Shown here in pieces: positions 1 to 64,000 of a stretch of DNA of 64,000 bases (position 1 is the first letter of the stretch; every line of letters begins with the position of its first letter). A program made the position numbers and the translations under genes. The notes under the pieces are model-generated. The model worked only from the letters and a program-made list of their open reading frames with translations. It was not told where the DNA came from and made no database searches. The stretch is from positions 310,001 through 374,000 of the forward strand of contig OZ237738.1 of the NCBI GenBank assembly GCA_965178125.1. Direction: 5' to 3'. The stretch comes from Bilabrum cf. latius (Eukaryota).

Positions 1-3000
1 GTTCACCAGTGGTGCTGAGGTGAGGCAGGTGCTTCGGGTGCGAGGGCAAAGCGGGCTGGACTTCGAGAGCCTGCCTGACTATGACACGACACTGTCAACT
101 GCGGACCCGCGCTGGCCCACTGAGCCTGTGTCTAGAGCACACAAGATCACCTTGAATGTGGAGGACGCCTCGGGGTCTGGCACTTTCGTGGTGGACCTAC
201 CTCTGAGAGATGCCAACGAGGAACCCACTGTGACCGCTAGCCTGAACATCGTGGCCGAGGATGCCCCTGTTGGCACCGTGGTTGGCACTGTTGTTGTGGT
301 GGATCCCGATGCTGGGGACAGCTACGAGGTCCAGGCTACTGTTGCGAACTACGATCAGCTGTTCTCATTCAACGCAGAGACGCAGGAGATTGTGCTGGAG
401 GGTGAGCTGGACTACGAGCGTGAGCAGTTCTACAGCCTGTCTGTGACTGCCACTGACTCAGGCGGTCTGGTTGGGCAAACGACTGTGAGCATGGGTGTGA
501 CGAACGTTAATGACATCACCATCGATGACGTGCAGGGCGAGTTGCCGCTGAGCACGGACGGATCCTCTGCGATCGAGGTGGTCGGCACTAACCTGGGATA
601 CTTCAACACATCCAAGAACCCCGACATCAAGGTGTCCTTCGGCCCGCTCGGTGACATCGAGCGCTTCCAAGCGCGTGACTGCGTTGTTACCACGATCAAC
701 ACCAGGATCCGCTGCGCCTCCACAGATGAGGGTTTCGGGGCCAATTTGCGAGTGCGGGTCCAAGTGGGCGAGCACGTAAGAATCTCAGAGGCAGATATCA
801 CTGTGAGCTTCGCGCCCCCCGTCCTGAACTCAACCGTGATGACCGCGGACCTGCCAGGCAGTGGGGGAGGTACCTTCACCATCCGCGGTACTGGCTTCGG
901 GCCGTTGGGTGCTGTCGGTCTCAACAACGCGCGCTCTGCCTTGCAGGTGGTGTATGCCCCTAGCTGGGACACGAGTGGGTACACGTACACTGGCCGGGGC
1001 TGCGCGGTGACTGTGGCCCACACTGAAGCAGAGTGCACCACGGGCGAGGGCTTCGGCGCCTCAAACTGGGTGATCCTTCAAGTGGCGGATGCAAGTGTGG
1101 AGGAGAGCCGCCGAAGCACCGATTCGCAGACGCTCCGGTCAACGACACTGGATGACGCCATCAGGTTTGCTGCCCCTGTGGTGACCGACCTGCAGACCCC
1201 GTCCCAGACCGGGGGCCAACTGAGCACGGCAGGCCGCCAGCTCATCTCGATCTAGGGTAGGAACCTCGGCCGCTTCAAGGCATTCGGAGATGAGACGGCC
1301 CAGTCCCAGCAGCCTGGTCTCTTCCCTGCAGCTGGGTCTGGGGACTGTCCTCGCGGGTGGTCTGCATGCTCTCATGTGTACTCGCAGGGTGTGGCCAGCG
1401 CGCTTGGCTCCACTGCGGGCATGTATCCGACCGAGTCTGACTCCATGGTGCCGCGGGTGTCAGCCGCAACCCCGCCGGGGAGTAGCTCCGATGGTGCGGT
1501 GGGCTAGCCGATGCACCCTGGCATCATCTCGGTGACCTATGGGTATTTGCCGAACGGGACCACCCTCGCCGAGGCTGAGTCCATGATCTCGCAGTACAAC
1601 ACCGACCGACGGTCTAGCGTGGACTCTGCCACTGCAGCAAAGATGACCGATATCTTGCCCCCCAGCCTCAGTGCCCCGCTCTCTCGATTTAGGCCCACCT
1701 GCCTTGTCCTGGTTGCCCACACCATGCTGCAGTGCGAGACTGTGCCCGGCTATGGTGCAGGCGTAGTGTTTGTCGTGCGTGTGGGAGGCTTGATTTCATT
1801 GGTGCAGGAGGAGTCGCCGTTCACCAGCTACATAACACCGAGCGTGTCTGGTGTCACTGGTGACGGGGCATTCAACGCTTCGACTCGCGGGTCGCAACTG
1901 GTGCTGATCTCAGGTGCACAGTTAGGGTCGCGCGACCTGCAGCCCGTGACCAGGGTCCGTTACGGTCCCTACGACCCGTCGAACTCGCCCGCCATGAGTC
2001 GCACGGAAGGTCTCAGCCTTGAATTCATCGCCGTGGATTGTGAGGTGGGCACGGACCAGCAGCAGATCCGATGCCTGACTGCACCTGGTGCAGGCCGCGG
2101 CCACTGGTGGCAGGTGCGAGTTGGCAACCAGTGGAGCCCCGTATTCGATGCAGCGTCTTCGTATGCCGCGCCGAGCATCATCGGGTTTGAGGGCGATGGT
2201 GCCCGCGATGCTTCCACGCGCGGTGGACAGGTCGTCACGGTGATGGGCGCCAACCTGGGTCCCACCACTGCTGACATCGACCGCGTATTCTACAAGGCCG
2301 TGAGCACTGTCGGCCCCGATGTGCCCCAGGGCAACGATACTGATGGTGATGAGGGCGACGAAACTCCCATCGAAGACCTCACTCCCGCTGAGAGACTGGC
2401 CGTGGTGGAGTTCGAGGCGGTCGGGTGCCAGATGACCAAGGCCCACGAGGAGCTCAGGTGTGTGACCGCCCCCGGTGTCGGTCGTACCCTCGAGTGGACC
2501 GTGATCGTGCGTGAGCAGAAGAACGAAGATCCTGTGACCAGCTATCATCCCCCGACAGTGCGGGCAGCCACGTCCTCTGCCGGAGACCAACAGCAAGCCG
2601 GTATGGGCTGGCTGCGTGCCGAGTCGTATGCCGCAGAGGTCCGCGCGCTGGACTTGCTGTACAAGGGGTGTGGGGCGTCAACTGGGCGCGTGGTCAACGG
2701 ATCCTCTGTATCTGGCTCTGACGACAGCGTGGTTGCAGGCGGCTCGAACCAGCCTGCATCCGTGCTTCGCGCCCAGCTGATGAGCTCGGACGGTGGACAG
2801 AGCGTGGTGATCGATGGCCAGCACTTCGGTCCTGCCACCACCCCTGGTCCTTTCCTCGAGGCCGTGTACTACGGGGCGAGTGGGTCTGAGTACGCTGCCG
2901 CTGATTGCACCCTGGTGGACCACAACCAGATCACGTGCTAGACGGTGCCGGGCATCTCGCCCATGTCAGCCGATGGCGGTGCCAACTGGCGGGTGTCCAT

Positions 3001-6000
3001 CGCTGGACGCATTTCATCGCCGTCGTTGCTCACTGCCGCATACGCACCCCCTGCGTTGCGCAGCGTGCATCCCAGGCTGCTGCCCACTCGTGGTGGGCAA
3101 GTGGTGACGATCGTCTCGACCGATCTGGCGCTAATGGACTCGGACTCTGACGTGACATTCGCATTCTCCCTTCCGTCTGGGGCTGCTGTGGAGGTGCAGC
3201 CCCTTGCGCCTGCGGCTCTGGCTGCTTACCCGACTGTGAGTGCTCCCACTTCGCAGCAGCTGGCTAACTGGGGATACCCTGGATATGGGGAGCCCGTGGC
3301 TGCCGGTGCTGGTCTTCGATATCCTCTGATCAACGAAGATGTGGCACGTCAGGCGCTGGTGGCCCAGCTCAACAGCGCTGGGTCCACCCTGTCTTGCGAC
3401 GCGGGTGCCATCGGGGCTGTGGCTACCTCGCTGCACGTGCTGTTTGCGATCTCACCAGAAGGTGCCGGTGCCAATGTTCCAGTGTCGGCTCAGGTGGTAT
3501 CTACCGCTGGATCTGGTCGTGGTGCTGCCGCTCTCGGGGTGCAGTCTCTGTCGGCCCCTGCCAGCTTCGAGGCACCCGCTATCCGAGCGCTCAATCCCCG
3601 GCCTGATTCGGAGCTTCCTGGCTTCACACGGCTCGACATTGTGGGTAGCAACTTCTGCAGTGCGCAGCGGACTGTTGACAACCCGACCGGGTGCGGTCGG
3701 CTGTATGTGTCCAGCAATGTTGGCATCGCTGAGTCTGACTTTGGCCCCGAGCACGAGGTCACGGCGATCGTGTGGGGTCATGACGCTGTGGTGGCCCGCA
3801 CGCCGCACACACAGGGCGCCATCATGATCGTCGCTGGCGGGCAGTCCTCGGGTAAGGTTACGTTCACCGAGATTGCGCCAGTGTTCGGCCGCAACGGCCA
3901 GCAGTCGTTCGAGGGCCAGGAGTTTAGCCCGGCTGGTGGCGATGAGATCACGGTGGAGGCGTGCAACTTGAGGGATGGAGAAACCACCGTGCTTGTGGGT
4001 GACACGGAGGCTACCTGCGGCAGCGTGTCGGTCATCTTCACTCCTACCAACAGCAACAACTCCGCGTGCGCCGAGCCCACCCACGCCATCACGTGTACCA
4101 CGCCGCCTGGTGTCGGTGCCGAGGTGCCGGTGGTGATCAAGGTCGGTGACCTCACCTCTGAGAGCATCATTACCCCGGATGCGGGCAACTCGTCCAGGCG
4201 TTTGTCAGCAGAGACGGGTGCATCCATTGCCTACGGCAGGCAGCTCTCTACCCATCGCGGCCGTCGGCTTGCCATTTCGTGCGCAGACAGCGGCGCCCCG
4301 TGCCTCACGTATGCGGCCCCGATCGTGCAGGAAGTGCAGTTCGCTCCAGAGGATGCCAGCAACCCGGGCACATATCTCGACTACGAGCGTGTGGATCGCG
4401 TGGTCGGCGGCACGGACATGGAGCTCGTTATGCCGACGAGGCCTGGCATGGTCCGCATCGTGGGCATGAACTTCGGGCCAAGGGGTACCGTCGAGTTGGA
4501 GCCGCCGACGTCTGGCCCTTCGTTTGCTGCTGCCGTGTTCCCTCCCAATGTGGACACGCCCACCTGGTCCAACGCGATGGTGGCCTTCCGCAAGCATGGT
4601 GGCGAAGGCAGGGGCTTCCGGTTCAGGCTGTTCCAGGGCCAGCCCAACACTGGTGATGATGTGTACGGTGTGCAAGAGCCCAGCTCTCCTGGTCGAATCG
4701 ACTTCCACCACAACGCTCCCACCATAGGCGTGGCCTCGCCTGCCCGCGTCCCTACCACGGGCGGCTCCATCGTGCTGGCAGGCGACCACTTCGGTCGCTT
4801 CCAACCTGGTACCGCCGTGCCTACCGTGACCATCTCCTGGCCTGGGGCAGCATCCGCGCAGACTTGCTCGGTCACTGCACCGCTCCTGACTGAAGACGCT
4901 CACAGTGTCATCCGCTGCGACGTACCCGAGGGCCAGGGATCCGACGTTGTGGTGACTGTGACTGTTGGTGGTGTTGCGACCTCGTCCGCGCCAGGCTCCG
5001 CATTCCGGTACAACTTCCCCTTCCCTCGCGTGCTGTCACCCCCCACTGCCTCCACAGAGGGCGGTGAGAAGATCGTGATGCACGGTGACGACTTTGGCAT
5101 CTCGGGTGCCACTGTGGTGTTCCAGCGGCGGCAGGCGCCTGGTGCTCCGTTGGAACAGCTGCTGGTGCCCACGATGAACGTGTCAGCCCACAACCATTCA
5201 ACCATCGTGTTCGATGTTCCAGAGGGGCAGGGCCTGGGCTGGAGCGTGGGTGTCCGCGTGGGAGAGCAGTTCTCGTTGGACGACCCAGTGCAGCAGAGCA
5301 GCCCGCTACTGTTCGACTACGCCCCTCCTCGTGTTTTCTCGGTGCGGCCTGGCACCGGTCGCACGATCGGTGGGTACGACCTCATCATCGAGGGATCCAG
5401 TTTCGGTGTCTCCGGGGCCCGCGCCCTCATTGGCGGGCGCTCCTGCGAGCTGCTGCCGCTGGGCGGGTCCCAGGCTGCAGCCGATGCCATCGCAAGCTCC
5501 GGTGGGGGTGGGTTGCCGCCAGCTGCGATTCCAGCACACTCACACACTCGTCTGGTGTGCTCAGCCCCGGCTGGCATGTTCCCGAACCAATCCGTGGTGG
5601 TGATTGCCGCTGATGGCAGGTCCAGCCCTGCCGAGACAGTGTTCTTCCACTACGACCCGCCGGTCACGACTGGCGTATTCCCGAACCCGCCCGACGCCGA
5701 GGGCGAGGAGATCTCGCTGTTGGGCATCAACTTTGGCGTGACCGAGACGCCCGTCAGCATCAACGTGGGCGGGCTTGAGTGCGAAGACGCCGAGTGGCAG
5801 GCCGATGACGAGCTGACCTGCTCACTGCCAAGGCACCGCGCGGGCCACAAGAATCTGACCGTGACTGTGGCAGGCTAGACGAGTCACTTCGAAGAGCGCG
5901 ACTACCGCATCCGGCTGCAGCTCATGTGCGCCAAGGACTACTACGGACAGGACGGAGAGTACTGCCTGCAGTGCCCCGATGGTGCCGAGTGCCCCGGTCG

Positions 6001-8624
6001 CCTGGACGAGCCCTACGCCATCGAGGGCTGGTTCCGACTGACCCACTAGAACGGCTTCTTCGCGCCCGACGAGGCCAACCCTGAGAATGAAGTGTGGACT
6101 TGGCAGCCGAGCGCCCGCTGCCACCCCGAGCGCCGCTTCACGCGCACCAACTGCTCAGAGTTCGTGGCTTGCCAGCCCGCCGAGGCTTGCCTGGGCAACA
6201 ACGTGTGTGCTGATGGATACGAGGGTGTGCGCTGCGCCTCTTGCGCAGAGGGCACGCACTACCGCATCAACGGCTTCTGCGAGGAGTGCCCGGACAACCC
6301 ATGGCTGCTGTTCCTTGCCCTGATCGCTGCCGCATGCGTGGCTGGTGGCGCTGCGTACGTGCTCAACTCCAAGAACGTGAACCTGGCATTCATCAGCGTG
6401 AGCTAGCGCTTTGATCTCCTCGTCGTATCGTCCTTGCTTCTTGTATATTTAGCATACTTCCCTTTCAATTCTGTCCTTGTGCCGCTACCATCTCGCAGAT
6501 CGGAATCGACTACTTCTAGGTGCTTGCGATCTTCGCCTCTGCTCGCATCGCCTGGCCCGAGCTGATCCGGCAGATGTTCCAGATCATGTCCGCCTTCAAC
6601 CTCAACATCGAGCTTACGGCTCCGGAGTGCGTGGTGCCGTCGCTCGCGTACCAGGGCAAGTGGTTCGCGTTCATGGTTCTGCCGCTGCTGGTGGCTGTCT
6701 TCTTCGGTATCCTTCACGTTATCAAGCTCGTGTACAAGCGCTGCGTGCTTGGCCACACGACCAATTTGAACGGCCACCTTCCTCAGCTGATCTCCGTGCT
6801 CCTGGTGTTCGGATACGTGGCTTGTGAGTCCTCTCCCTTGTTGCATCCTATCTCGTGATTGGCCCATTTCGGCTAGAAGCCTGCTAGTACTTGCATCTCA
6901 TGCTATCCTTTGAATTTTTTTGTTCGCCCCCGCCACAAATCACAGACCTGATGCTGTCTCGCTTCACTCTGGACGTGTTCAACTGCCAGCGCATCGTGGG
7001 CGAGGATGGCAGCAACCCTGACACGGCCAGGTACATGGGCGGCCAGACTGACATCGAGTGCTACGAGGCCGGTGGCACGCACCTGACACTGCTGCCTTTC
7101 GCCATCATCGCATTGATCGTGTACATTATCGCGTTCCCAGTGTTCATCGGGTACTTGCTTTGGAGCAACAAGAAAATGGTCAAGCGCGACCAGCTGTCCC
7201 GTGCTCGCGACGAGCCCGAGACCAGGGAGCGTCTTGGCAACGATGGGTACGAGTTCCGCAAGAAGTTCTCGCGCATGTACCAGTTCTTCAAGCCTGGCAA
7301 GTGGTACTGGATACTGGTGCTTTTCGCCCGCAAGTTCGCACTGGCGCTGACCAGCCTCATGTTCGCTACTGTCCCGTCCTACCAGCTGGCCATGAGTCTG
7401 CTCGTGCTGTTCATCGGGTACACGCTGCAGACCAAGCACGAGCCCTACATGTCGCCCAGCGACCACAAGCTGGTGCTGGAGGAGCATGCCATGAAGGCCC
7501 GGTATTCTGACATGCACGCCAAGATCGAGGCCCAGCATCGCGACCAGATGCGTCGCAACCGTGTCCGTTCGGCACCGGCGGGCGGCAACGGCTGGTCCGC
7601 TGCAGAGGCTCAGAAGCAGGCTAGTCACATGATCTCGTCTGCCAGTCTGTACTTCCTGTCGTACAACGGACTTGAGAGCACGCTGCTGTTCTGCGCTGTG
7701 CTCCTGTGCCTGTCTGGCCTCATGTTCGAGAGCGACCGTTTCGCCTCATCGGGTCAGAACACCGTGGAGCGTGACACCCTCACGTACCTTGCGCTGCTGA
7801 TCATCTTCAGCTCGATCGTCTACTGGCTTTCGGTGGTATTTATCGAGATCTTCATCGTCTTCCAGCCCGAAGCAGCCGCAAACTGCTTCGGCGAGACGGA
7901 GGAGCAGAAGAAGCGCCGGGAGGAGAAGACCATGGCTGGTGTGAAGCAGGGCAAGACCGCTCGCAAAGCAGGCATCACCAAGGATGGGGACTTCCAGATG
8001 GGCGCGGGTACTGCTGCAGGATTCGCACCCGAGTCAGGCAGAGACGGCGACGCTGATGCCCAGACCCAGTTCCACAACAACCCGCTCGTTGCCAAGATGA
8101 GCATGCGCAGCATGAACGTTGATGACCTTGATCCCAGCACCACCCGAAGCGTTGGAGGGCTAACCCTGACTGATATCGTGCGTGGTGACAAGCCGCCTGC
8201 TCCTGAGCAATGGGCCAGTGTGCAAAGCCTTGTGCAGGGCATGCTGGACGATTACGACGCTTTGAGGGCAGACCGCTTGGAATCTGCCCACAAAGAGGAG
8301 CAGGCGAAGGTAATGAGTGAGCGCCACGCAGCGGGGGCCAAGGCGGCCAGGCGTAAGTCTGGCATTGCCTTTGCGCCTAAGCGCGCCGACAGTGGCACGG
8401 ATGACGTTGTACATGGTGGTGCAGGTGGGGGCTCCTCGAAGGTCAAGAACCCAATGGCTGCCAGCCGGTCAGGTGCGGGCTCCAGCACCACTTCCGCCAA
8501 GTTCGGCAGGGCCCAGGGCCTCCGGGGACTGCGAAAGGACCAGAAGTCCTCGATGGCTGCCAGAAGGGCAGCGGCTAAGGGTGGGGCCGCTGAGTCTGCT
8601 TCGTCCGGGGATGCTGGAAAGTGA
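1..8624 (+). CDS. Giant cell-surface multi-pass membrane protein, copy 1 (5'-partial): cadherin repeat(s), many IPT/TIG-like repeats, Cys-rich region, multi-TM region, cytoplasmic tail; ~2,800 codons in window
   Basis: ORFs 20-1255, 1511-2941, 2945-5878 and 6092-6406 share one frame, separated only by TAG (1253, 1505, 2939, 5876, 6047). Introns 6398-6498 and 6824-6945 (GTGAG...CAG) join them to 6520-6858 and 6891-8624, with another TAG at 6517. Ends TGA 8622-8624. Cadherin motifs DANEEP, EDAPVGTVVG, DPDAG, LDYERE, ATDSG, VTNVND. Repeated G.N(L/F)G ... C.T.PG.G ... V.V(G/A)xQ.S TIG-like units. Confidence 0.88.
2620..8096. repeat. Left arm of a long inverted repeat (>=5.4 kb); partner at 58524-64000
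   Basis: Position p maps to 66620-p (2945/63675, 5878/60742, 6891/59729), so there is no net indel; scattered substitutions only. Confidence 0.95.
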
Positions 8625-8979: not shown

Positions 8980-11900
8980 TCACTGTTGCACATCTAGCAA
9001 CAGTGGACTCCCAGTGACATCTGCAGCCCTTGGATACAGGCTTGGTGCACTCAGCACCTAGAATTCTTCACAGGACCCTTGCCGACCCCCAGTGCACCTC
9101 CTTGCCTCTACTCGTAGCATAGAAGCAGCGCATGGCCGGTCAGCGGTAATCGGCCCTGCTTCATTGGCGCTATCTCGACCCCAAAGTAGTGCGATTTCAT
9201 ATGCCTATCCTCCAATCAGGCGCACCCCTCCTGCTGCTGGGCTGACCGGCGAGGAATCATGAACTGCGGGAGCCGCAGCCTTAACGCTACTTGGCCATGT
9301 CATATTGTGACTAGCGGTCGATTGAGCGCTGTCAGCCACTGGTGCTAGTGGATACCCAATCAGCAACTTGGCAGCATGGCCCGCTGGTGCGACAGCCCTG
9401 AACTCCCAGTCACCCCCTTCGCTGTACCCTGGACGGAACCAACCTGACCACCTTGCCGAGCCCACATCAGGTCCTATCATCGCAATCCCTGCCGCGCTGG
9501 TTCCGCATGCGTCAGGTAGACTCTATTGCCCAGCTGCCCAGGCCTCGAGGGCGGGATTCTATACGTCGCCCCCTCCGACGAATCGCCGTGGAAGCACGGC
9601 CCACTCCATGGAATGAGCAAGCGGTGCAGCAGAGGTGTCCGGAGTAGCTTCTATGAATGGAAAAGAGATATCCTCCGGGGCCGCTCTTGCAACTCCAGCA
9701 AGGCCATGGCCGCCCGCAGCACGTAACACATCTCCAGAGAGCAGCAAGACTCGGACCACGTACCTTCCGTCTCTTGGTGGGGCGATCCGAACGTCATAAG
9801 TACCCTACGAGGAGGGCTGACCGCCGCCTCTCGGCGACACAATCCCGGCACCAGTCCAACCGCCATACCTGCCTGCGCCCCCGACCCGCACTGCGATCAC
9901 GTCATCCCACGGGAGGGGATAGGTGGGAAGAGCCTCGCCAGCGTAAGGCAGTATGTTCTCATCAACAGGCCTTGCAAGCGCACGGCGATTTCCAAATGAG
10001 TCTCCGGCAACGGCGACAAAGTGCACTGCGCTTGGCTGTGCACCCGCTTCGCCATTTCCAGCCGCACCAGCCAACACAGAGTCAGCTCGGGCATCTGCAC
10101 CTAGCGAAGGTGGAATGATGCTTAGTGGATCCGATCCATTTAAGCGGATCGCAGACCAACCAACACTTGCACTGGCGACGAGATCAGATGCTTCAGTCCC
10201 GCTCCGCCTGCCCTGACCGTCAAGGGCTAGCCTAGCCGCTCGCAATGCCTCGCGCACGTCCACTGTGGGAGTGCTGTTGAATCCACCGAGCGCTGTCCCT
10301 GCCGGGTGCGCCAGAGATGGCAGCACCAGCATACGATAAGCGCCGGTTGACGGGGTGACTCCCCCCACCGAGACATCAACTTCATACTCACCTGCCACGG
10401 TAACATTGGCGCTCGCCAGATACCGCCCGGCGATACCGTCGGACCCGCCGACCAATCCAGCAGAGCTTGCAGCATCAATGACTTGCTGCACCGACAGCAC
10501 AGAGGGCTGTACCTCAATATCCTCACGAGCAAGCAAGACATTATTGGTCGCGGTTCCGCCTAATTCAATTCCGGGCGCGGCACTGAAAGTATCCAGGGTT
10601 GACGGCGTCGGTGCGCCCGAGCTCGGAGTAGTCCCTGGGATGAGAGAAAGGCGGGCAGAGGCACCACCAGAGGCAGCCTGCGTGAGATTGTTCCCGCCTG
10701 CATCTACTCCCTAGATCGCAAAGACAGTGCCTCGCCCAGCGACAGCGAGGGAGAGGCCTTGCCCCCACGCAAGCGACCTGCCAGCTGCTCTACCCGTGGC
10801 AACATTCAGCTTGAAAGGACTGCCTGGCACGCGCACTCGCTGGCGCACATTCTCGACCGTCACAGGCGGAGCCAGGACGTCTGGAATTTCGTAAGCTACG
10901 AGAACTTCAAGCCAGAATTGACCCGCAGTGTGTGGCGTATAGCTGACGGTCCACACCGCCCCGGCACTGCCACCAGACCTCCGCGCAGTAGCAACCTGTC
11001 TCCCAGCAACGGCATTAACTGAGCCTGGTTCGATGCGATTTCCGGCAGCGTCGAAAGCAGGCTCAAGTAGCACGGTAAGCACAGTCGCATCGGTCCAAGA
11101 CGACCCGTTGTCTTGTCGGGTCCAGCTGCCAGCTCCGTTGCGAAGCGGGTTTCCGAACCTGTCTCGCACCTCGACTTCGAACGAAGTCGGCACGTCTACC
11201 GTGGCAGAGTGCAGCGCTTCTCCTCGCGCCTGCGAGGAGGGTCCGTCAGGATACGCTGGAGCTGTCTCCAGCTCGAACCCGGACACCCCCGCTGCCCCGG
11301 CGCACGAAGGAGTTGGGCGACTCAGCCACTCGAAAGGCACTGGGTGGAGCGCACTCTCCACGGCATCGTCCGCCGACTCGCTTATTCCGCGGGGGGTGAC
11401 TGCAGCCTCAAGTAGGGACGTGTTTGCCTCTGCCAATCGCAGCCTGATCCAGTCAAATGCAGCCACTGACTTCATACTGCGCCGTGCTACAGAAGATGTG
11501 TATGTCACGGCGATTGGCAGGTATGGAGCATGGTCGGGTTGCTGGCGAACAGAAGCACGGGGCGACTGCTACGTAGGACCGGTTTCATTGCCTGCAAGAT
11601 GAAGCATCACTACGCTGCCATCATTCTGAACAGGAGCTGGGTACGTTGTGCTCTACAACGAGGATCCCGTGATCGCAGGCAAGCGGCGGCCCGGCTCGAC
11701 CCATCCCGCTACTCTGCTAAGAGAAAGTGCACCTCCGATAGCAACAGTGACTTCCGCGCCACTAGCCGCCTAAACCTCCACAATGAAGCCATCTGACGCA
11801 GGTGGCATCCTCAACCAGCCGTCCCACCGCACAGTTGTCGAGCCACGGTCCGCGAACGCATTCCATCCGCTTTCTCCGTCCGCGATGGACTTAAAGAGTC

Positions 11901-20900: not shown

Positions 20901-21615
20901 AGTCCTCCCCCGTTCTGTGGGGCTCGCACTAGCACTACCCTGTGGCATAGTCGCAGGAGCCTGCTCCCGAGCATCCGTTCGGGCAGTGCACCTTGGGCAC
21001 GCAGGTGCCCACCGACGTGGCATTGAGCTGTGTGCCGTTGGTCGTGCCAATTGCGACATCATCTTGCACGATTCCACTGGCTTCCTGGCGCGTTGCAGAG
21101 GCGTTGTCTTGCCTGAAGTGTGTCGGGGCGCACTGGTCGCAGGACTGGCCCGCGTATCCTTCAAAGCAGAAGCACGTCCCGGAGCGGCGGTCACAGTAGC
21201 CTGCTCTAGAGGACGTGCAGAAATAAAGTCCATCCTAGCCTTGTCCGTGCCCAAGAAACGAGAGAAACGAAGCGTCGCCCATTGCAGCGAGCTCGTCCTG
21301 ACTTGCCTGGACCATGCCTGGGCATCGCTGCCGAGGCCTTACGCCGTCGTAGATATTTGGCTGTGTCACGGTCAATGGGGACCCTGGGTTTACTCTGACG
21401 CGCCTCGGGTCGCTAGCATTATTTCGCCTGCCTACAAATCCGGGATCGTACGCCTCAAAGTCAGCCGAGGCCCGTAGCTCAGTCTGGTTCTGCCTTTCAT
21501 AGTCATGGATTCTATACGCCAGCGTTGTTGCACTCAGACAATAAAATGCGCATAAATTGATCAGAATTGACAAACTCGCAGCTATTTGACTTCCTCGAGC
21601 TGCATCATGAGGCAT
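8980..21615 (-). CDS. Giant secreted protein (~4,160 aa): signal peptide, EGF-like and Cys-rich repeats, Calx-beta domain, filamin-like Ig repeats with PA14-like domains
   Basis: ATG 21615 with hydrophobic leader (SLSILINLCAFYCLSATTLA). Intron 20616-20774. Exon 8980-20615 is one frame interrupted only by TAG (~27, plus 3 in exon 1). Ends TGA 8980-8982 after GSPLLLDVQQ. Motifs: CPNGCSGAGSCDYATG*C*C (EGF); LRRTGGGLGRVSV...DDLEVEGNETAILEL (Calx-beta); RD..GN / GSPF.L.V (filamin-like); AEYY...SAKWWGRI...D*ARLWIDGRLVIDAW, VRWDGWL, SARWSGWF (PA14-like). Confidence 0.85.
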
Positions 21616-24084: not shown

Positions 24085-24300
24085 GTTTGCGATATGAATG
24101 CAAGTTGCCGCAACGGAATGCAAGCGGAACCAGCCAGGTTCGCATCGCGCGGCGCCACTGAGACCAGGTGGTCGCTGACTTGCCTCTCGGGTCCCTGGGG
24201 TCCAGCCCCGTTGCAAGGCTCTTGTGCCGGTCGGACCACCTGCGCTACAGCGGCTTTTCCCGATGTAGCACCATCTCGGGTCCTCCTTAGATGCACTAAA

Positions 24301-51954: not shown

Positions 51955-52119
51955 AGTGTGAGGAGAAATTATTCTGTGCCTATCCCACCGAGTCATCGCA
52001 CGATAATACTTCTTATTAAACTACTACGCGCCAAACATTGGCCAAATGGTCTTTGATGGGGCGTTGGCGAAGGGAATAGCAAGGAGCGGTGATCGCGTTC
52101 TGGACATTTTTAGCTCCGG

Positions 52120-53881
52120 ATGTTGGGTATGCATTGCACGGTACTGCTATCATTGTGGCAAAAACCTGGGTTTCGTGCAGTAATTCCACATGTCAGATGT
52201 ACTAGAGTACATTTCATAGTTAGAAGCTGATGATAGTGTTCGGCTTGCGCTAGAGGACGCCCTTTTCGCCATTAACGGCGCTCTGCATGTGTACACACCC
52301 AGGGAAATCGTCTTTAGTTTTAACGGCGGGAAGGACTCTACGGTAGTCCTGCACTGTCTTCGAGCGGCCTGCTACCAGAGAAGCTAGGGCAAGTCTAGTC
52401 TTAGCATGCAGGATTTTCGTTTTGTGTACTTTGAAGACCCTGATGAATTTCCTGAGGTGTTGAAGTTTATGGAGGACTGCTGTCGGGACTATGATATATC
52501 GATTGAGAGACTGCCCGAATTTAAAATAGGAATATCATAGTTATTGGCTGATGGTGTTGTCAGAGCAGTTTTGATCGGCACTCGAAGAGGTGATCCGGAT
52601 GGAGGTAAGCGACCAGTTTGATGCATTCTTGAGACGCTAGCCCTGCTACAATACATGCATGTTTGTTGTAGAATTGTTCATCATGTCAAACATCCTTGCA
52701 ATATCGCAGCAAACATCGGTATTTTCTAGCCAACATCGCCGGGGTGGCCGCCAATGATGCGGGTGTCGCCGCTGCTCGAGTGGGATTACGGGCAGATATG
52801 GAGGTTTCTCAGAGAGGCCAAGCTGCCCTATTGCAAGCTCTACGACGATGGTTACACCTCTCTCGGTTCTGTTTCTACGTCGAAGCCAAACCCCTCTTTG
52901 CTTGTGCCTCCTGGATCCGCACCAGTCGTTCTGCCTGGCGAGGCCGGGGCTGTGGCCCCCGGCACTCACCTGCCCGCGTACATGCTTGGAGACGGAGAGC
53001 TCGAGCGCGCCGGCCGAGTCAAGCGATCATCCAAACCAAAACGAAGAACTGGATCTTAGGCTGCCGCCAGCCCAGCCTCCGGCGACGGTTCCGACCGCAA
53101 GTCAAGTGGCACTGCTGCCTCGAGCGATACAAAGGCCTCGTGCAGTGCCAGCGCTGCGCCTGAAACTAGCGGGTACCCTGCAAAGTCTGGTCGGGCGAAT
53201 GGTGGTGCATCTGCACATGCCACAGACCCTTCTTCGTCTCGGGCCGCTGCGGGTAGGGCAGACACTTTGTCCACCGTGCCGTTGTTTCGACGGCAGTCTT
53301 CGTACGACCCGGGCGAGGACAGAGACGCTGCAGGAAGCGATGTATCGAGTGATGGAGAGTTGGACAACTTGGCTGCTGCGAAACTCCCGTCAGGCGTGCT
53401 TGCTAGGGATAGGAAAGACCCTGGATGCGTGGCGCTGGCTCACGCTCTGGGGCGGCAAGATTTTGGAAGCTTGGGTCTGCCTGCACTTGGCTGGGCGGCA
53501 GTGTCAGTCCGAACAAGCACATCTGCATCGTCGACCAGCCCGTCGGCAGCCGAGGTGTGTTTCACTGTACCCGTGTCCTCGGTTGCGTCCAAAGAGAGCG
53601 TTGAGGCATGCGTGGTGCAGCTGCTGCAAGCTCCACGTCCGCAAGGCGGTGCAGCTGGTAGCCAAGCGGATGGCGCGGGACATTCTTCAGCTGCTACCGG
53701 GAGTAGGGCAGGACCTGACTGGGGATCCATGTCGGTGACTGCCAATAGACAGACCATGCGGCGCATGAGTGGTTCTACAGATGGTGGGAGCCTCGCGGCA
53801 GCCGTCGAGGAGGGCAGTCCAGATGGTCCGGATTGGGTGGTTGACGTTGTCGTTGGGCCAGCATCGGCCGCGAGCACATGA
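52120..53881 (+). CDS. FAD1: FAD synthetase (FMN adenylyltransferase, PAPS-reductase fold) with C-terminal extension (~528 aa)
   Basis: SFNGGKDSTV, DEFPEV, IGTRRGDP, F*PTSPGWPPMMRVSPLLEWDYGQIWRFL, YCKLYDDGYTSLG, NPSL, ERAGR. A 7-nt first coding exon (ATGTTGG), then introns 52127-52196 and 52605-52709. Five in-frame TAG. Ends TGA 53879-53881. Confidence 0.88.
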
Positions 53882-54008: not shown

Positions 54009-55655
54009 TTAACACTCCGAATGCCCAGCGTCTTGCATGACGATGAAGCCGATTCCCAGAGCAGGCATGCTAAACGGCTCGTCGGCGGGGCGCCGACGCG
54101 GAGACAGATCTGGCAGCGACCCATCAGGCAGCAAGTGCAGGTCTGGGCCATCATTCAGAGCCGCGAATCGGGCCTCGCGAGGATCCCTCTGGGTCGCATC
54201 CACACTTGGTGTCAGCAACCACTCAAGCCAATCTGTGTCCTTCAGCCCTTTAGAGGTGGCCTTCACTGCTTCGCCCCCGCCATCCACTTGGATTTGTACG
54301 GTTTCAGTCAACGTGTTCAGCAGCATCAAGGTCACAGATCCCTTATTGTAGCCCCCCGCAGGAGCCCTGCCGCCACCGGAGCAGAAGGCATAGGCCAAGA
54401 CCGGGGGTTCCCCGTCCCCTCGTGCAAATTGCTGCCCACTCATGGACACCGAGGCTCTCAGCACGGAGGCCCCCGCGGTCATCTTGAATAGAATGCTCAC
54501 CCAGTAGTCGACTGCGACTGGATATGGCGCTGAATCGGGACCGGCATGGACCGCAGGTTGCACGAAACCAAAGTGCTGCGAGTACAGGTTCCACCTTGAA
54601 TGCATCCTTAGCCCAGCTGCCGACGTCTGGCCGAGAGAAGCAACGTAGAAGAACGCGTTGGCGAACCCGACCATGTCTGGTCCGTCCATGTCGTAGCACG
54701 AGTTAGTCTCTGTCAGCTGCAGCGCCACACCGGCTTGCTGCAGCCCAGTGCTCTGCCACTGGCGCCAGCACTCGCTGGCGTTGGCATGCAGGTCATTCAG
54801 CCACACAGACTGTCGCAGCCACGTTGAACTAAACATTTCTTCGTAGTACTGCGAATGGTTCTTGCACGTACGGGCGGGGTACGAGTGGTAGTTAAAGGCT
54901 TGCAGGAACGGCCTCGTGCCTTCCATAAACGCCGCTGAGGTCTCGTCGCACATGTCAGTGGAGGGCCCTTGCAGCTCCGGCCGGCTAGCATTGCTGGTTG
55001 TGCCGGTGCCCCAAACTGAATCAAAGACCTTGCTAAGCTCCAGATAGTCGCGAATATTCGTCGACATGTTGATGTGTAGAGATCGGGTGAGCTCGTTTCC
55101 CATCTCCACGCCCTGCAATCGGCCTGAGCTTGCCCGTTCAGGATGGTCGTGGAACCATTCGAGCAAATACTTGGTGTTCGTTGAGTCCCACGAACCACTG
55201 CAAGTCCAATTCTACGGACCTCCGCACTTTCTCCCGTACAGCTCGTTCACATCGAAAACGAGATCAAAACCCGACGACTCCGTGAAGTTCAGCAATACAT
55301 TCATGTCGGAGCTGCTGAAAATCTTGTCTCTGTACGGCCAGTAGCTCTGCAGCTGCGCCTTACTGCCGCCAGAATCTCCCAGCGAATAGTTCGTCCAATC
55401 CCCGGATATACCTCCAACACGAAAGAATGCCGGAGATAGAGACGACGCGACTTTCTGGAAGATTGGGTTACTCAGCGTACTGGTTGTGCTTAGAAAGCTG
55501 TACATCTCTTCGCCAATGGAAACGAAGCGCGGGTCCAGATGTGCGATTTTTTTGCCAACTGCAACTGCAGCCCGCCGGTGAGCCGATGCAGGGCTGGATG
55601 GGCGCGGTTCAGACGCCGCAGCAGCACACACTACAAGAGTCAATAATGCTAGCAT
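54009..55655 (-). CDS. Secreted/lysosomal glycoside hydrolase family 79 (heparanase-like beta-glucuronidase), 548 aa
   Basis: Signal peptide MLALLTLVVCAAAAS. Motifs LDPRFVS, LSPAFFRVGG, GFDLVFDVNEL, GSWDSTN, EMGNE (acid/base), NYHSY, LTETNS (nucleophile), DYWVSILFK, AYAFC, FSMPALGIGFIV...C. One TAG at 55212. Ends TAA 54009-54011. Confidence 0.88.
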
Positions 55656-55773
55656 TGTTTTTGCCCTGACTTCAATGGAATGTGCTGTGTTTTGCCGTGA
55701 TATTGAAGCAAACTTGCCGGTTGCAACGCCTGTAGCTGCGGCGCGTCATTTCGACACAAAGCAACCTGCGAAC
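55656..55773. promoter_or_regulatory. Putative bidirectional promoter between the GH79 and sulfatase genes
   Basis: Only 118 bp separate the two divergent ATGs. No specific element identified. Confidence 0.5.
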
Positions 55774-57470
55774 ATGAATGGCGGAGCTAAAGCCTGGATA
55801 GCAGCCATCATATCAGTATGCATGTCTGGCGAGGTCGCTGGCTCAAGGCCAAACCTCGTGTACGTACTGATGGACGATACGGATGTCATGTTGGGATCTG
55901 ATAAAATGCTGAAGAAAGGCCGAGAACTGGTGGCAGACGAAGGAGCTCTATTTGAACAGGTGTGATAAGTCAATTTTTCGTCTGAATTTCCTCGACCCTG
56001 CGATGTTGGGACGGATACTACATTGTTGGCTCCGAGCTTGCTGCCATTTCGCAGTTTCGAACGCTGTCGCCAAAATGCACCCCAAGCCGGACCGGATAGC
56101 TGGCCGGGCGCCACTACCACAATGTGCGTCCAAATGGAGGAAGTGGCGGAGATCCGCCAGGGACGGGAAGAGGCCTGAACCAAACAACGATGTTCGAGCC
56201 AGATGCACTTTTTCCCATGCTCCACTCCAACGGATACTGGACCTCTATCGTCGGCAAGGTCCACAACGACCAGGCGAGCTTTTTGTGCAAGCCAAAGAAC
56301 GACACTGCCCCCTTCACGCACGTCCACACGGCGTGCAGGCCGTGCGGTGGCTACTGGCGCACGCAGTACACGGTCAAGCAGGTCGGCGAGAGCGTCCCCC
56401 GCCTCGTGGAGCTGAACGCGACAGACTGGAGCACCTACTCCGAGGGTCAGTTCGGTAATGCCTCCATTAAGTTCATGCGAGAAGCAGTGGCGGCGAAGCA
56501 GCCTTTCTTCGCCTACATTGGCACGACGGGTCCGCACCTCCCGTCCATCCCGGCGCCCTGGCACCTACCCGAGGTCAACAGCTGGAATGTGACCGCACCG
56601 CGACTCCCAAACTTCAACCAGCACTACCCCGATCACCACCCAATGGTTGCCGATGCCCCGGTGGTTGATCCTGACAAGGTTCATTTCATGGACGAGCACT
56701 ACCGCGACCGGCTAGGCACGCTGCTCTCCATCGACGACCTCATCGCCAACGTGGTCCACGAGCTAGAGTCCCTCGGGGTCCTTGACAATACTTATATCAT
56801 CGTTTCTTCCGACCATGGCTATCACATCGGCAATTGGCGCATTCCCATGGAGAAGATGTGGCCCTACGAAACAGACATCCGCATCCCGGCCTACATGCGC
56901 GGACCAGGCATTCCCGCAGGACAGCGCATTCGCTCAATGGCAATGAACCTCGACATCCTGCCCACATTCCTGGACCTGGCGGGCATTCCATTGTCTCCGG
57001 AGTACGACGGACGCAGCCTTGTACCTCTTGTGAAGGGCTCGGAGGCTGAGCGCAAGGCAGCCGCGGACGGATGGCGCACGCGCACTGTGATCGCATTCGC
57101 CGAGGGAGCCACTCAGGAGTGGGGTCACACTTCAATCTCAAACGGGACGATCTCCGACCCGTAGAGTACTTCGGTGCCACCGCTCAAGTCGGACTCTGGC
57201 AAGACATACCTCTTCGATGACCCGGCCAACCAGTGGAGAATGCTGAGAGTGGCCAATACCTCCCACAACGTGTCGTACGTCGAGTGGGACCCGGTGTTCC
57301 TCTTCGAGAAGATCGCTTTCCATGCCTTCTATGATCTGAACAAGGATCCGTACGAGCAGGAGAACCTGTACCAGCAGCTGCCCACGGACCAGCAGCGCAT
57401 CTGGCACGAGGAGCTGGATCGCGAGTTTACTTGCCGCGGTCATCACGGGACTCGAACGGACTGCTCCTGA
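55774..57470 (+). CDS. Secreted/lysosomal Cys-type (formylglycine) sulfatase, N-acetylglucosamine-6-sulfatase-like (~533 aa)
   Basis: Signal peptide. Motifs RPNLVYVLMDD, CTPSRTG*LAGRHYHN, GYWTSIVGKVHN, GPHLP, TLLSIDD, LDNTYIIVSSDHGYHIG, KMWPYETDIRIP, NLDILPTFLDLAG, FYDLNKDPYEQENL. Intron 55960-56054. TAG at 56097 and 57162. Ends TGA 57468-57470. Confidence 0.9.
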
Positions 57471-57995: not shown

Positions 57996-60900
57996 TCACA
58001 CGCTTGCCCCGGCATCCGCGGCGGCGGCCCCTCCCTTGGCCGCTGCAGCTGCCTTGGCCGCTGTCCGCCTGGCAGCCATCGAGGACTTCTGGTCCTTTCG
58101 CAGTCCCCGGAGGCCCTGGGCCCTGCCGAACTTGGCGGAAGTGGTGCTGGAGCCCGCACCAGATCGGCTGGCAGCCATAGGGTTGACCACCTGGCTGCCT
58201 GCGCCGCGACCCATTACGGCAGCATCAGACCCAGCATGAGTTCGCTGGGGCGCAAATGCCATGCCAGACTTCCTTCGGGGCGCCTTCGATCCCCGCCCCT
58301 CGCTCTGTGCCTTGGCTTGCTCCTCTGATTGCATGGCAGCCAGCCGGTCAACCCGAAGCGCCTCGTTGTCGTCTAGCACGCCCTGCACCAGCTCCCTCAC
58401 GTTATCCCATTGTCCCGGTGCTGGAGGCTAGCCTCCGTTTAGGATCTCCGTCAGGGTCAGCCCACCGACGCTGCGTGTCGCGGCAGGATCCACGGAACCG
58501 GCGTCCAGAGAGCGCATGCTAGCCTTGGCAACGAGCGGGTTGTTGTGGAACTGGGTCTGGGCATCAGCGTCGCCGTCTCTGCCTGACTCTGGTGCGAATC
58601 CAGCAGCAGTACCCGCGCCCATTTGGAAGTCTCCATCCTTGGTGACGCCTGCTTTGCGAGCGGTCTTGCCCTGCTTCACACCAGCCATTGTCTTCTCCTC
58701 CCGGCGCTTCTTCTGCTCCTCCGTCTCGCCGAAGCAGTTTGCGGCTGCTTCGGGCTGGAAGACGATGAAGATCTCGATGAACACCACCGAAAGCCAGTAC
58801 ACGATCGAGCTGAAGATGATCAGCAGCGCAAGGTACGTGAGGGTGTCACGCTCCACGGTGTTCTGACCCGATGAGGCGAAACGGTCGCTCTCGAACATGA
58901 GGCCAGACAGGCACAGGAGCACAGCGCAGAACAGCAGCGTGCTCTCAAGTCCGTTGTACGACAGGAAGTACAGACTGGCAGAGGAAATCATGTGATTGGC
59001 CTGCTTCTGAGCCTCTGCAGCGGACCAGCCATTGCCGCCTGCCGGTGCCGAACGGACACGGTTGCGACGCATTTGGTCGCGATGCTGGGCTTCGATCTTG
59101 GCGTGCATGTCAGAATACCGGGCCTTGATGGCATGCTCCTCCAGCACCAGCTTGTGGTCGCTGGGTGACATGTAGGGCTCGTGCTTGGTCTGCAGCGTGT
59201 ACCCGATGAACAGCACGAGCAGACTCATGGCCAGCTGGTAGGACGGGACAGTAGCGAACATGAGGCTGGTCAGCGCCAGTGCGAACTTGCGGGCGAAAAG
59301 CACCAGTATCCAGTACCACTTGCCAGGCTTGAAGAACTGGTACATGCGCGAGAACTTCTTGCGGAACTCGTACCCATCGTTGCCAAGACGCTCCCTGGTC
59401 TCGGGCTCGTCGCGAGCACGGGACAGCTGGTCGCGCTTGACCATTTTCTTGTTGCTCCAAAGCAAGTACCCGATGAACACTGGGAACGCGATAATGTACA
59501 CGATCAATGCGATGATGGCGAAGGGCAGCAGTGTCAGGTGCGTCCCACCGGCCTCGTAGCACTCGATGTCAGTCTGGCCGCCCATGTACCTGGCCGTGTC
59601 AGGGTTGCTGCCATCCTCGCCCACGATGCGCTGGCAGTTGAACACGTCCAGAGTGAAGCGAGACAGCATCAGGTCTGCGATTTGTGGCGGGGGCAAACAA
59701 ACAAATTCAAAGGATAGCATGAGATGCAAGTACTAGCAGGCTTCTAGCCGAAATGGGCCAATCACGAGATAGGATGCAACAAGGGAGAGGACTCACAAGC
59801 CACGTATCCGAACACCAGGAGCACGGAGATCAGCTGAGGAAGGTGGCCGTTCAAGTTGGTCGTGTGGCCAAGCACGCAACGCTTGTACACGAGCTTGGCA
59901 ACGTGAAGGATACCGAAGAAGACAGCCACCAGCAGCGGCAGAACCATGAACGCGAACCACTTGCCCTGGTAAGCGAGCGACGGCACCACGCACTCCGGAG
60001 CCGTAAGCTCGATGTTGAGGTTGAAGGCGGACATGATCTGGAACATCTGCCGGATCAGCTCGGGCCAGGCGATGCGAGCAGAGGCGAAGATCGCAAGCAC
60101 CTGGAAGTAGTCGATTCCGATCTGCGAGATGGTAGCGGCACAAGGACAAAATTGAATGGGAAGTATGCTAAATATACAAGAAGCAAGGACGATACGACGA
60201 GGAGATCAAAGCGCTAGCTCACGCTGATGAATGCCAGGTTCACGTTCTTGGAGTTGAGCACGTACGCAGCGCCACCAGCCACGCATGCGGCAGCGATCAG
60301 GGCAAGGAACAGCAGCCATGGGTTGTCCGGGCACTCCTCGCAGAAGCCGTTGATGCGGTAGTGCGTGCCCTCTGCGCAAGAGGCGCAGCGCACACCCTCG
60401 TACCCATCAGCACACACGTTGTTGCCCAGGCAAGCCTCGGCGGGCTGGCAAGCCACGAACTCTGAGCAGTTGGTGCGCGTGAAGCGGCGCTCGGGGTGGC
60501 AGCGGGCGCTCGGCTGCCAAGTCCACACTTCATTCTCAGGGTTGGCCTCGTCGGGCGCGAAGAAGCCGTTCTAGTGGGTAAGTCGGAACCAGCCCTCGAT
60601 GGCGTAGGGCTCGTCCAGGCGACCGGGGCACTCGGCACCATCGGGGCACTGCAGGCAGTACTCTCCGTCCTGTCCGTAGTAGTCCTTGGCGCACATGAGC
60701 TGCAGCCGGATGCGGTAATCGCGCTCTTCGAAGTGACTCGTCTAGCCTGCCACAGTCACGGTCAGATTCTTGTGGCCCGCGCGATGCCTTGGCAGTGAGC
60801 AGGTCAGCTCGTCATCGGCCTGCCACTCGGCGTCTACGCACTCAAGCCCGCCCACGTTGATGCTGACGGGCGTCTCGGTCACACCAAAGTTGATGCCCAA

Positions 60901-63900
60901 CAGCGAGATCTCTTCGCCCTCGGCGTCGGGCGGGTTCGGGAATACGCCAGTCGTGACCGGCGGGTCGTAGTGGAAGAACACTGTCTCGGCAGGGCTGGAC
61001 CTGCCATCAGCGGCAATCACCACCACGGATTGGTTCGGGAACATGCCAGCCGGGGCTGAGCACACCAGACGAGTGTGTGAGTGTGCTGGAATCGCAGCTG
61101 GCGGCAACCCACCCCCACCGGAGCTTGCGATGGCATCGGCCGCAGCCTGGGACCCGCCCAGCGGCAGCAGCTCGCAGGAGCGCCCGCCAATGAGGGCGCG
61201 GGCCCCGGAGACACCGAAGCTGGATCCCTCGATGATGAGGTCGTACCCACCGATCGTGCGACCGGTGCCAGGCCGCACCGAGAAAACACGAGGAGGGGCG
61301 TAGTCGAACAGTAGCGGGCTGCTCTGCTGCACTGGGTCGTCCAACGAGAACTGCTCTCCCACGCGGACACCCACGCTCCAGCCCAGACCCTGCCCCTCTG
61401 GAACATCGAACACGATGGTTGAATGGTTGTGGGCTGACACGTTCATCGTGGGCACCAGCAGCTGCTCCAACGGAGCACCAGGCGCCTGCCGCCGCTGGAA
61501 CACCACAGTGGCACCCGAGATGCCAAAGTCGTCACCATACATCACGATCTTCTCACCGCCCTCTGTGGAGGCAGTGGGGGGTGACAGCACGCGAGGGAAG
61601 GGGAAGTTGTACCGGAATGCGGAGCCTGGCGCGGACGAGGTCGCAACACCACCAACAGTCACAGTCACCACTACGTCGGATCCCTGGCCCTCGGGTACGT
61701 CGCAGCGGATGACACTGTGAGCGTCTTCAGTCAGGAGCGGTGCAGTGACCGAGCAAGTCTGCGCGGATGCTGCCCCAGGCCAGGAGATGGTCACGGTAGG
61801 CACGGCGGTACCAGGTTGGAAGCGACCGAAGTGGTCGCCTGCCAGCACGATGGAGCCGCCCGTGGTAGGGACGCGGGCAGGCGAGGCCACGCCTATGGTG
61901 GGAGCGTTGTGGTGGAAGTCGATTCGACCAGGAGAGCTGGGCTCTTGCACACCGTACACATCATCACCAGTGTTGGGCTGGCCCTGGAACAGCCTGAACC
62001 GGAAGCCCCTGCCTTCGCCACCATGCTTGCGGAAGGTCACCATCGCATTGGACCAGGTGGGCGTGTCCACATTGGGAGGGAACACGGCAGCAGCAAACGA
62101 AGGGCCAGACGTCGGCGGCTCCAACTCGACGGTACCCCTTGGCCCGAAGTTCATGCCCACGATGCGGACCATGCCAGGCCTCGTCGGCACAACGAGCTCC
62201 ATGTCCGTGCCGCCGACCACGCGATCCACACGCTCGTAGTCGAGGTATGTGCCCGGGTTGCTGGCATCCTCTGGAGCGAACTGCACTTCCTGCACGATCG
62301 GGGCCGCATACGTGAGGCACGGGGCGCCGCTGTCTGCGCACGAAATGGCAAGCCGACGGCCGCGATGGGCAGAGAGCTGCCTGCCGTAGGCAAGGGATGC
62401 ACCCGTCTCTGCTGACAACCGCCTGGACGAGTTGCCCGCATCCGGGGTGATGATGCTCTCAGAGGTGAGGGCACCGACCTTGATCACCACCGGCACTTCG
62501 GCACCGACACCAGGCGGCGTGGTACACGTGATGGCGTGGGTGGGCTCGGCGCACGCGGAGTTGTTGCTGTTGGTAGGAGTGAAAATGACCGAGACGCTGC
62601 CGCAGGTAGCCTCCGTGTCACCCACAAGCACGGTGGTTTCTCCATCCCTCAAGTTACACGCCTCCACCGTGATCTCGTCGCCACCAGCCGGGCTGAACTC
62701 CTGGCCCTCGAACGACTGCTGGCCGTTGCGGCCGAACACTGGCGCAATCTCGGTGAACGTGACCTTGCCCGAGGACTGCCCGCCAGCGACGATCATGATG
62801 GCGCCCTGTGTGTGCGGCGTGCGGGCCACCACAGCGTCATGACCCCACACGATCGCAGTGACCTCGTGCTCGGGGCCAAAGTCAGACTCAGCGATGCCCA
62901 CATTACTGGACACATACAGCCGACCGCACCCGGTCGGGTTGTCAACAGTCCGCTGCGCACCGCAGAAGTTGCTACCCACAATGTCGAGCCGTGTGAAGCC
63001 AGGAAGCTCCGAATCAGGCCGGGGATTGAGCGCTCGGATAGCGGGTGCCTCGAAGCTGGCAGGGGCCGACAGAGACTGCACCCCGAGAGCGGCAGCACCA
63101 CGACCAGATCCAGCGGTAGATGCCACCTGAGCCGACACCGGGACGTTGGCACCGGCACCTTCTGGTGAGATCGCAAACAGCACGTGCAGCGAGGTAGCCA
63201 CAGCCCCGATGGCACCCGCGTCGCAAGACAGGGTGGACCCAGCGCTGTTGAGCTGGGCCACCAGCGCCTGACGTGCCACATCTTCGTTGATCAGAGGATA
63301 TCGAAGACCAGCACCGGCAGCCACGGGCTCCCCATATCCAGGGTATCCCCAGTTAGCCAGCTGCTGCGAAGTGGGAGCACTCACAGTCGGGTAAGCAGCC
63401 AGAGCCGCAGGCGCAAGGGGCTGCACCTCCACAGCAGCCCCAGACGGAAGGGAGAATGCGAATGTCACGTCAGAGTCCGAGTCCATTAGCGCCAGATCGG
63501 TCGAGACGATCGTCACCACTTGCCCACCACGAGTGGGCAGCAGCCTGGGATGCACGCTGCGCACCGCAGGGGGTGCGTATGCGGCAGTGAGCAACGACGG
63601 CGATGAAATGCGTCCAGCGATGGACACCCGCCAGTTGGCACCGCCATCGGCTGACATGGGTGAGATGCCCGGCACCGTCTAGCACGTGATCTGGTTGTGG
63701 TCCACCAGGGTGCAATCAGCGGCAGCGTACTCAGACCCACTCGCCCCGTAGTACACGGCCTCGAGGAAAGGACCAGGGGTGGTGGCAGGACCGAAGTGCT
63801 GGCCATCGATCACCACGCTCTGGCCACCGTCCGAGCTCATCAGCTGGGCGCGAAGCACGGATGCAGGCTGGTTCGAGCCGCCTGCAACCACGCTGTCGTC

Positions 63901-64000
63901 AGAACCAGATACAGAGGATCCGTTGACCACGGGCCCAGTTGACGCCCCACACCCCTTGTACAGCAAGTCCAGCGCACGGACCTCTGCGGCATACGATTCG
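57996..64000 (-). CDS. Giant IPT/TIG / Cys-rich multi-pass membrane protein, copy 2 (5'-partial; paralog of 1-8624)
   Basis: ORFs 63679-63966, 60742-63675, 60214-60528, 59762-60100 and 58428-59729 are near-identical to copy 1. Introns 60122-60222 and 59675-59796. TAG at 63679, 60742, 60571, 58428. Ends TGA 57996-57998. Confidence 0.88.
58524..64000. repeat. Right arm of the long inverted repeat; runs off the window end
   Basis: Reverse complement of 2620-8096, including both introns. Confidence 0.95.

Follow-up and report, generated by a model that had tools for sequence, protein, structure and literature searches.

Probable use of UAG as a glutamine codon in GC-rich, intron-poor nuclear DNA from an assembly of Bilabrum cf. 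latius

Genes and coding frames of the 64-kb window

The window analysed here is a stretch of 64,000 nucleotides (nt) from Bilabrum cf. latius, namely positions 310,001-374,000 on the forward strand of contig OZ237738.1 (assembly GCA_965178125.1). Its GC content lies between 55 and 66%, and its genes contain numerous in-frame TAG triplets. The genetic code of these genes is the subject of this report: UAG appears to be an ordinary sense codon that is most probably read as glutamine (Gln), with UGA (the main stop) and UAA as terminators. As judged by Pfam, the content of the window is eukaryotic, with matches to HECT, katanin p80 (WD40 and con80), protein kinase, GH79, sulfatase, and PAPS_reduct families; further matches correspond to LRR, A_deamin, filamin repeats, laminin-EGF, and MIT. 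The identities previously proposed for the HECT ligase, katanin p80, kinase, and FAD synthase genes, which had been read from the letters alone, are matched by Pfam or PDB entries.

When all three standard stop codons are applied, the longest open frames in the window reach only 978 codons. With TAA and TGA as the sole stops, frames of 4274 codons with 47 TAG (38724-51548, minus strand), 3902 codons with 27 TAG (8980-20688, minus strand), and 2187 codons with 6 TAG (2-6565, plus strand) appear; for the first two of these to be open, TAG must be a sense codon. Codons were counted in 19 hand-set coding segments (approx. 18,980 codons), and the expected number of each stop triplet was scaled from the two non-coding frames of these segments. 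TAG occurs in-frame 114 times (143 expected), approximately as often as a triplet free of constraint would, whereas neither TAA nor TGA occurs (67 and 378 expected, respectively); thus, TAA and TGA have been purged from the coding frames, but TAG has not. These counts agree with the original prediction of more than 100 in-frame TAG codons and no in-frame TAA or TGA. Among the Gln-type codons of the segments (114 TAG, 484 CAG, and 165 CAA), TAG accounts for approx. 15% (114/763), a share that varies by gene from approx. 25% in an orphan giant gene to approx. 6% in an IPT/TIG gene and to none in the long exon of a leucine-rich-repeat (LRR) gene. Six further TAG codons lie in first exons outside the 19 segments, three in a filamin-repeat gene and three in the LRR gene. 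In total, all 14 gene models carry in-frame TAG (approx. 120 codons), so that the earlier claim that TAG is present in every gene, made for 13 genes, also holds for the present set.

The 3' ends of the genes give a complementary picture: 13 of the 14 end in TGA and one in TAA, and TAG terminates none of them, although 14 ends are a small sample. TAG codons are found throughout the genes, including near their 3' ends. That UGA still acts as a stop is indicated both by its absence from the coding frames and by its predominance at gene ends; in particular, the HECT domain extends to the last residue ahead of its TGA. UAA is likewise absent from the coding frames and ends the GH79 gene, where it stands a few residues past the end of the heparanase alignment, as expected for the C-terminus.

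The gene models are as follows, from left to right. The left copy of a gene for an IPT/TIG-rich giant membrane protein (2-8624, plus strand) is truncated by the start of the window, has at least five in-frame TAG codons, and ends in TGA; a long exon frame occupies 2-6565 and is succeeded by a multi-pass membrane region at 6828-8624, within which 6951-8621 has a weak TRP-channel-like match. A giant protein with repeats of the laminin-EGF and filamin types, either secreted or at the surface, is encoded at 8980-21615 (minus strand; Pfam EGF_laminin and Filamin; TGA end); its gene has a main exon at 8980-20615 with 27 TAG and a first exon, with a Met near 21615, that contains 3 TAG. The intron inferred between them from its GT..AG ends (20616-20774, minus strand) has a GTGAGC donor and a CAG acceptor. 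Its length of 159 nt is a multiple of three, and the flanking exons therefore mimic a continuous frame interrupted by just one TAA, which is a trap for tests of TAA as a sense codon. The LRR protein gene (21914-24085, minus strand; Pfam LRR_8; TGA end) comprises a long exon without TAG (21914-23530) and a first exon at approx. 23675-24085 with a Met near 24085, which was set by reading all three frames and from a GTGAGT donor at 23674. The HECT ubiquitin ligase gene (24301-27798, minus strand; TGA end) carries six in-frame TAG codons, and its HECT match (E 2.7e-43) covers profile positions 35-305 of 306.

Six in-frame TAG codons are also present in the MIT-domain protein gene (27844-28800, minus strand), whose MIT match (E 1.2e-6) is slightly under the Pfam cut-off and whose TGA stop is immediately followed by TAA. 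The adjacent gene of the ADAT/ADAR-type adenosine deaminase family (28946-31267, minus strand; Pfam A_deamin) has five; in this tRNA/RNA adenosine deaminase-like gene, long in-frame microsatellites give rise to (GQ)n and (GA)n tracts and to approx. 25 consecutive Ser residues. The katanin p80 gene (31254-34355, plus strand; WD40 propeller and con80) contains three TAG codons and ends in TGA; the homologue search with its WD40 part returned generic WD40 proteins only and yielded no usable TAG columns or taxonomic signal. The MST/STE20-type protein kinase gene (34500-36398, minus strand) is composed of four exons (36398-36123, 36033-35835, 35745-35662, and 35530-34500); of its three TAG codons, two fall where the kinase domain has a conserved Gln. 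Its C-terminal tail (34500-35100, minus strand) ends in helical sequence that, by eye, looks like a SARAH-type dimerisation tail, although no such Pfam domain is found at E 0.001.

A gene of unknown function (36510-38584, plus strand) with four TAG codons is followed by the orphan giant gene (38724-51791, minus strand), which matches no Pfam family. The main exon of the latter (38724-51537) comprises approx. 4270 codons, 47 of them TAG, with two introns upstream. The FAD synthase gene (52622-53881, plus strand; PAPS_reduct-type FMN adenylyltransferase; TGA end) has its last exon from 52708 onwards and contains one exonic TAG; the second TAG of its open frame lies inside an intron. The GH79 heparanase-like gene (54009-55745, minus strand; TAA end) has one in-frame TAG. 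The N-acetylglucosamine-6-sulfatase-like gene (55986-57470, plus strand) has two, one of them within the active-site signature CTPSRTG[TAG]LAGRHYHN. The second copy of the IPT/TIG gene, at the right and inverted (57996-64000, minus strand), is truncated by the end of the window.

TAG codons in spliced contigs and in related sequences

Eight public sequencing runs contain region 40001-50000 of the window, and four (X1, X5, X7, and X8) were compared with it over 33001-53000. X1 represents collinear DNA; a single record of 27 kb spans the whole 20 kb with zero differences, and X1 may thus be the run from which the window derives. The contigs of X5, X7, and X8, which come from studies other than that of X1, are missing seven intervals bounded by GT..AG (or CT..AC), each of which is an intron. 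Three of these belong to the MST kinase gene (35531-35661, 35746-35834, and 36034-36122, minus strand), one to the gene of unknown function (36777-36864, plus strand), two to the orphan giant gene (51538-51629 and 51706-51791, minus strand), and one to the FAD synthase gene (52603-52707, plus strand). The spliced joints argue that all three sets of contigs are RNA-derived; for X5, this is also suggested by contigs that end at gene boundaries and by a depth that varies from gene to gene.

The TAG codons are retained in these contigs. X5 covers 38662-45638 and 45652-51537 with zero base differences, so that each of the 47 TAG codons in the giant gene is included. The sole differences listed in 33001-53000 are at positions 33650 and 45636, and neither is a TAG site. 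Because TAG is unchanged in contigs from which the introns have been removed, RNA editing, splicing out of TAG, and miscalled CAG codons are excluded for this region. Hence, the expectation that TAG should be present in RNA data is borne out here, and the outcomes named in advance as contrary to it (TAG spliced out, edited, or a CAG miscall) were not seen.

In-frame TAG codons also occur in related sequences. The metagenome contig L001 (9342 nt; GC content 57%) shares synteny with the window and carries FAD synthase, the gene of unknown function, the kinase, and katanin p80, with 51-86% protein identity to their counterparts. It has in-frame TAG codons of its own; of its four long frames, three terminate at TGA and one at TAA. 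A closer relative is represented by fragments similar to the orphan giant gene: an initial metagenome scan with this gene found no relative, and a search of 1.84 billion representative sequences gave 12 matches, seven of which are fragments of 66-248 residues with 85-91% identity. Several database fragments, either of this closer relative or near-identical to the window, stop exactly where the window has a TAG codon, as would be expected if standard-code gene calling met a genome in which TAG is sense: P0257 stops at residue 187, just before TAG 188; P0001 and P0134 stop at residue 392, just before TAG 393; and P0121, P0122, and P0127 stop just before TAG columns 443, 886, and 643, respectively. 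As judged from these sequences, the use of TAG as a sense codon is common to at least one more distant relative (L001) and to a closer one (85-91%).

Amino acid assignment and alternative readings

The identity of the amino acid is indicated by homologous positions. In the MST kinase, the TAG of exon 1 is aligned with the second Q of 'IMQQCDS' in human STK4, and that of exon 3 with the Q of 'DFGVAGQL' in STK3/STK4; residue 188, a TAG in exon 4, corresponds to Q in all three closest homologues (61-64% identity). The TAG in the sulfatase signature corresponds to Q in 15 of the 15 closest orthologues that cover the site (52-60% identity). In the close relative of the orphan giant gene, the sense residues at seven TAG columns are Q, Q, Q, Q, A, Y, and K; a Gln match at four of seven is much more than the background frequency of Gln would give. 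When codons in conserved context are paired between the window and L001, the pairs are CAG/TAG, TAG/CAG, TAG/CAA, and TAG/GCC, so that three of the four are consistent with Gln. The TAG of the GH79 gene falls in a loop that is absent from human heparanase and is thus uninformative. It can be said that the conserved columns point to Gln, and that the exceptions appear to be either single-base neighbours of TAG or variable positions.

Together, the frame counts, the spliced contigs, the Gln columns, and the gene ends support the original prediction that UAG is read as Gln with UAA and UGA as stops, as in NCBI table 15. We assign a probability of approx. 0.9 to this reading, in which UAG is an ordinary Gln codon of a GC-rich (approx. 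60%), intron-poor nuclear genome.

A number of observations weigh against it. With respect to the residue, position 188 of the kinase is K in six of six distant homologues, and the kinase exon 1 site is Ala in L001. Remoter sulfatases have W, I, or L in place of the TAG of the signature; among the 120 matches listed, W occurs 34 times, I 32, Q 18, and L 14, with 13 gaps and 9 other residues. The FAD synthase TAG at residue 36 corresponds to Ser in human FLAD1, and to CAA in L001. Three of the seven giant-gene columns given above are not Gln, and 10 more TAG pairs between the window and L001, located in poorly conserved stretches, involve assorted residues. In addition, the two IPT/TIG copies, which have five TAG positions in common, differ at one site (AAG at 8190 on the left, TAG at 58430 on the right). 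With respect to the RNA evidence, a tool labels X5 as 'RNA? (probably DNA)', and no run is recorded as RNA, so that the RNA nature of the contigs is inferred from the joints. With respect to termination, UAA as a stop is based on one gene end together with its absence from coding frames.

Several of these points could indicate that UAG is sense but specifies another residue, such as Lys, Leu, Glu, Ser, or Tyr. Lys would fit the distant kinases and the TAG/AAG site of the IPT/TIG paralogues, hydrophobic amino acids occupy the signature position of distant sulfatases, and UAG is known to encode Leu, Ser, or Glu in a few other lineages (PMC11687900). However, the best-conserved columns ('DFGVAGQL', 'IMQQCDS', and the closest sulfatases) hold Gln, the conserved-context pairs with L001 set TAG mostly against CAG or CAA, and the giant-gene relative has Q at the majority of the TAG columns; a residue other than Gln is therefore very improbable. 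Slightly less probable still is a code in which both UAA and UAG encode Gln, as in table 6 (many ciliates, diplomonads, and some green algae), with UAA scarce merely through GC richness. The two codons are usually reassigned jointly, according to PMC11687900, TAA ends only one gene of the window, and the TAA at 20689-20691 parts two same-frame coding stretches of the filamin-repeat gene. Yet given 165 CAA versus 484 CAG, such a code would be expected to yield approx. 39 TAA per 114 TAG, and none is found in approx. 18,980 codons. Moreover, the TAA at 20689-20691 lies within the 159-nt GT..AG interval, removal of which gives a continuous Cys-rich reading, and the TAA of the GH79 gene falls where heparanase ends.

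The remaining alternatives concern whether UAG is always, or ever, translated. Codes in which a codon is mostly sense but acts as a stop in some contexts exist (Condylostoma, karyorelicts, and the Blastocrithidia UAA type), and 14 gene ends are too few to sample rare events well. The lack of TAG at any of these ends and its spread through the genes up to their 3' regions nevertheless make an ambiguous UAG highly unlikely. As for the possibility that TAG is not translated at all, being the product of pseudogene lesions, CAG miscalls, RNA editing, or hidden introns, its chance is practically negligible. Gene decay would also have produced TAA and TGA, which are absent from the coding frames; the X1 DNA and the X5, X7, and X8 contigs do not differ from the window at any TAG in 33001-53000; and the contigs are collinear across TAG, whereas the true introns are gone. 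For 33001-53000, the DNA and the RNA-derived contigs refute all four of these readings. The earlier argument that the TAG-bearing genes are not pseudogenes is upheld by the same observations.

Comparison with other codes and possible origin

The lineages to which table 15 applies (Iotanema and several ciliates) are AT-rich or otherwise unlike the genome sampled by the window, which has a GC content of approx. 60%, short GT..AG introns, and very long exons; this comparison is one of genome character and not of kinship. Reassignment of UAG alone to Gln is described in PMC11687900 for Iotanema spirale (Fornicata) and for the ciliates Protocruzia tuzeti, Hartmannula sinica, and Trochilia petrani. 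As in these four organisms, only UAG appears to be reassigned in the window, to Gln, with UAA remaining a stop. In contrast to table 15 ciliates, which prefer UAA as a stop (PMC11687900), the window ends 13 of its 14 genes in UGA. Reassignment of UAG alone to other residues is also listed in that source, namely to Leu in an uncultured rhizarian and in phyllopharyngean metagenome-assembled genomes (MAGs) and to Ser in Scotinosphaera, and the ciliate PL0344 is reported to read UAG as Glu and UAA as Lys (PMC10553269). The window resembles all of these in that UAG is uncoupled from UAA and differs from them in the residue, which is Gln according to the conserved columns. Overall, different meanings of UAG and UAA in nuclear codes are uncommon and are ascribed to approx. 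nine lineages in PMC11687900.

The code also resembles those of table 6 (many ciliates, hexamitid diplomonads, oxymonads, and some ulvophytes) in that a stop codon has been captured for Gln, presumably via a mutated tRNA-Gln. Unlike in table 6 codes, UAA is not a sense codon in the window, as is evident from 0 in-frame TAA versus 165 CAA. Code-15 bacteriophages, among them crAss-like ones, likewise decode TAG as Gln (PMC9523058); unlike these phages, the window has spliceosomal introns and eukaryotic genes, for example those for an MST kinase, katanin p80, and a HECT ligase.

Mechanistically, a tRNA-Gln with the anticodon CUA would pair with UAG and not with UAA, a logic that is set out in PMC11687900. 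Such a tRNA would be accompanied by an eRF1 that recognises UAA and UGA as before but UAG only poorly. UAG stops would have been few in a GC-rich genome with UGA at almost every gene end, which may have eased the capture of this codon. The eRF1 gene is absent from the 64-kb window, and no tRNA was found in L001 (9342 nt). The only tRNA that ARAGORN calls in the window is a tRNA-Gly(CCC) at 9871-9947 (minus strand), which is not supported by Rfam at the gathering threshold; it is probably a false call, given that it lies inside the coding frame of the filamin-repeat gene and that Rfam finds no tRNA in the window.

The labelled homologues are taxonomically inconsistent as well as distant, and judging by them, no lineage appears assignable. 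For the sulfatase, they include Salpingoeca urceolata (57%), Lacrimia lanifica (56%), and an entry labelled Picozoa SAG (52%); for the kinase, they include a cluster with a Symbiodinium sp. KB8 entry (42%) and a transcriptome entry with the prefix GECG01 (40%). All matches with more than 60% identity are metagenome or run-derived fragments.

The change of UAG to Gln is of an already known kind. A full-text literature search returned no report of UAG as Gln in a GC-rich non-ciliate, a weak negative given that most subscription papers and supplements are outside its coverage, and the odds that the code of this lineage is unreported are roughly even. Slightly less probable, and put forward tentatively, is the broader proposal that an independent UAG-to-Gln change occurred in an undescribed GC-rich, intron-poor non-ciliate clade that lacks close members among labelled protein sets, comprises at least three related taxa (those of the window, of the 85-91% fragments, and of L001), and uses UGA almost exclusively as its stop. 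If this is true, the clade would offer a natural test of the capture of UAG alone once GC pressure had made UAG and UAA stops scarce, and a GC-rich lineage with UGA stops would add a mutational background unlike that of the UAA-preferring ciliates. The split meanings of UAG and UAA also bear on how eRF1 and suppressor tRNAs separate two codons that usually change together. In practical terms, standard-code gene calling breaks proteins at each TAG. As the database fragments stop right at TAG sites, table 15 is required whenever sequences of the clade are annotated or binned from metagenomes.

Two observations concern gene arrangement. The ends of the window form an inverted duplication of the IPT/TIG gene, in which 2620-8580 matches 58052-64000 with 96.7% identity over 5945 aligned bases, and the two copies enclose approx. 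49 kb. In L001, the gene of unknown function and the FAD synthase gene are separated by approx. 700 bases (L001 positions 1869-2550) and the orphan giant gene does not lie between them; from this comparison of gene order, the giant gene may have been recently inserted or relocated.

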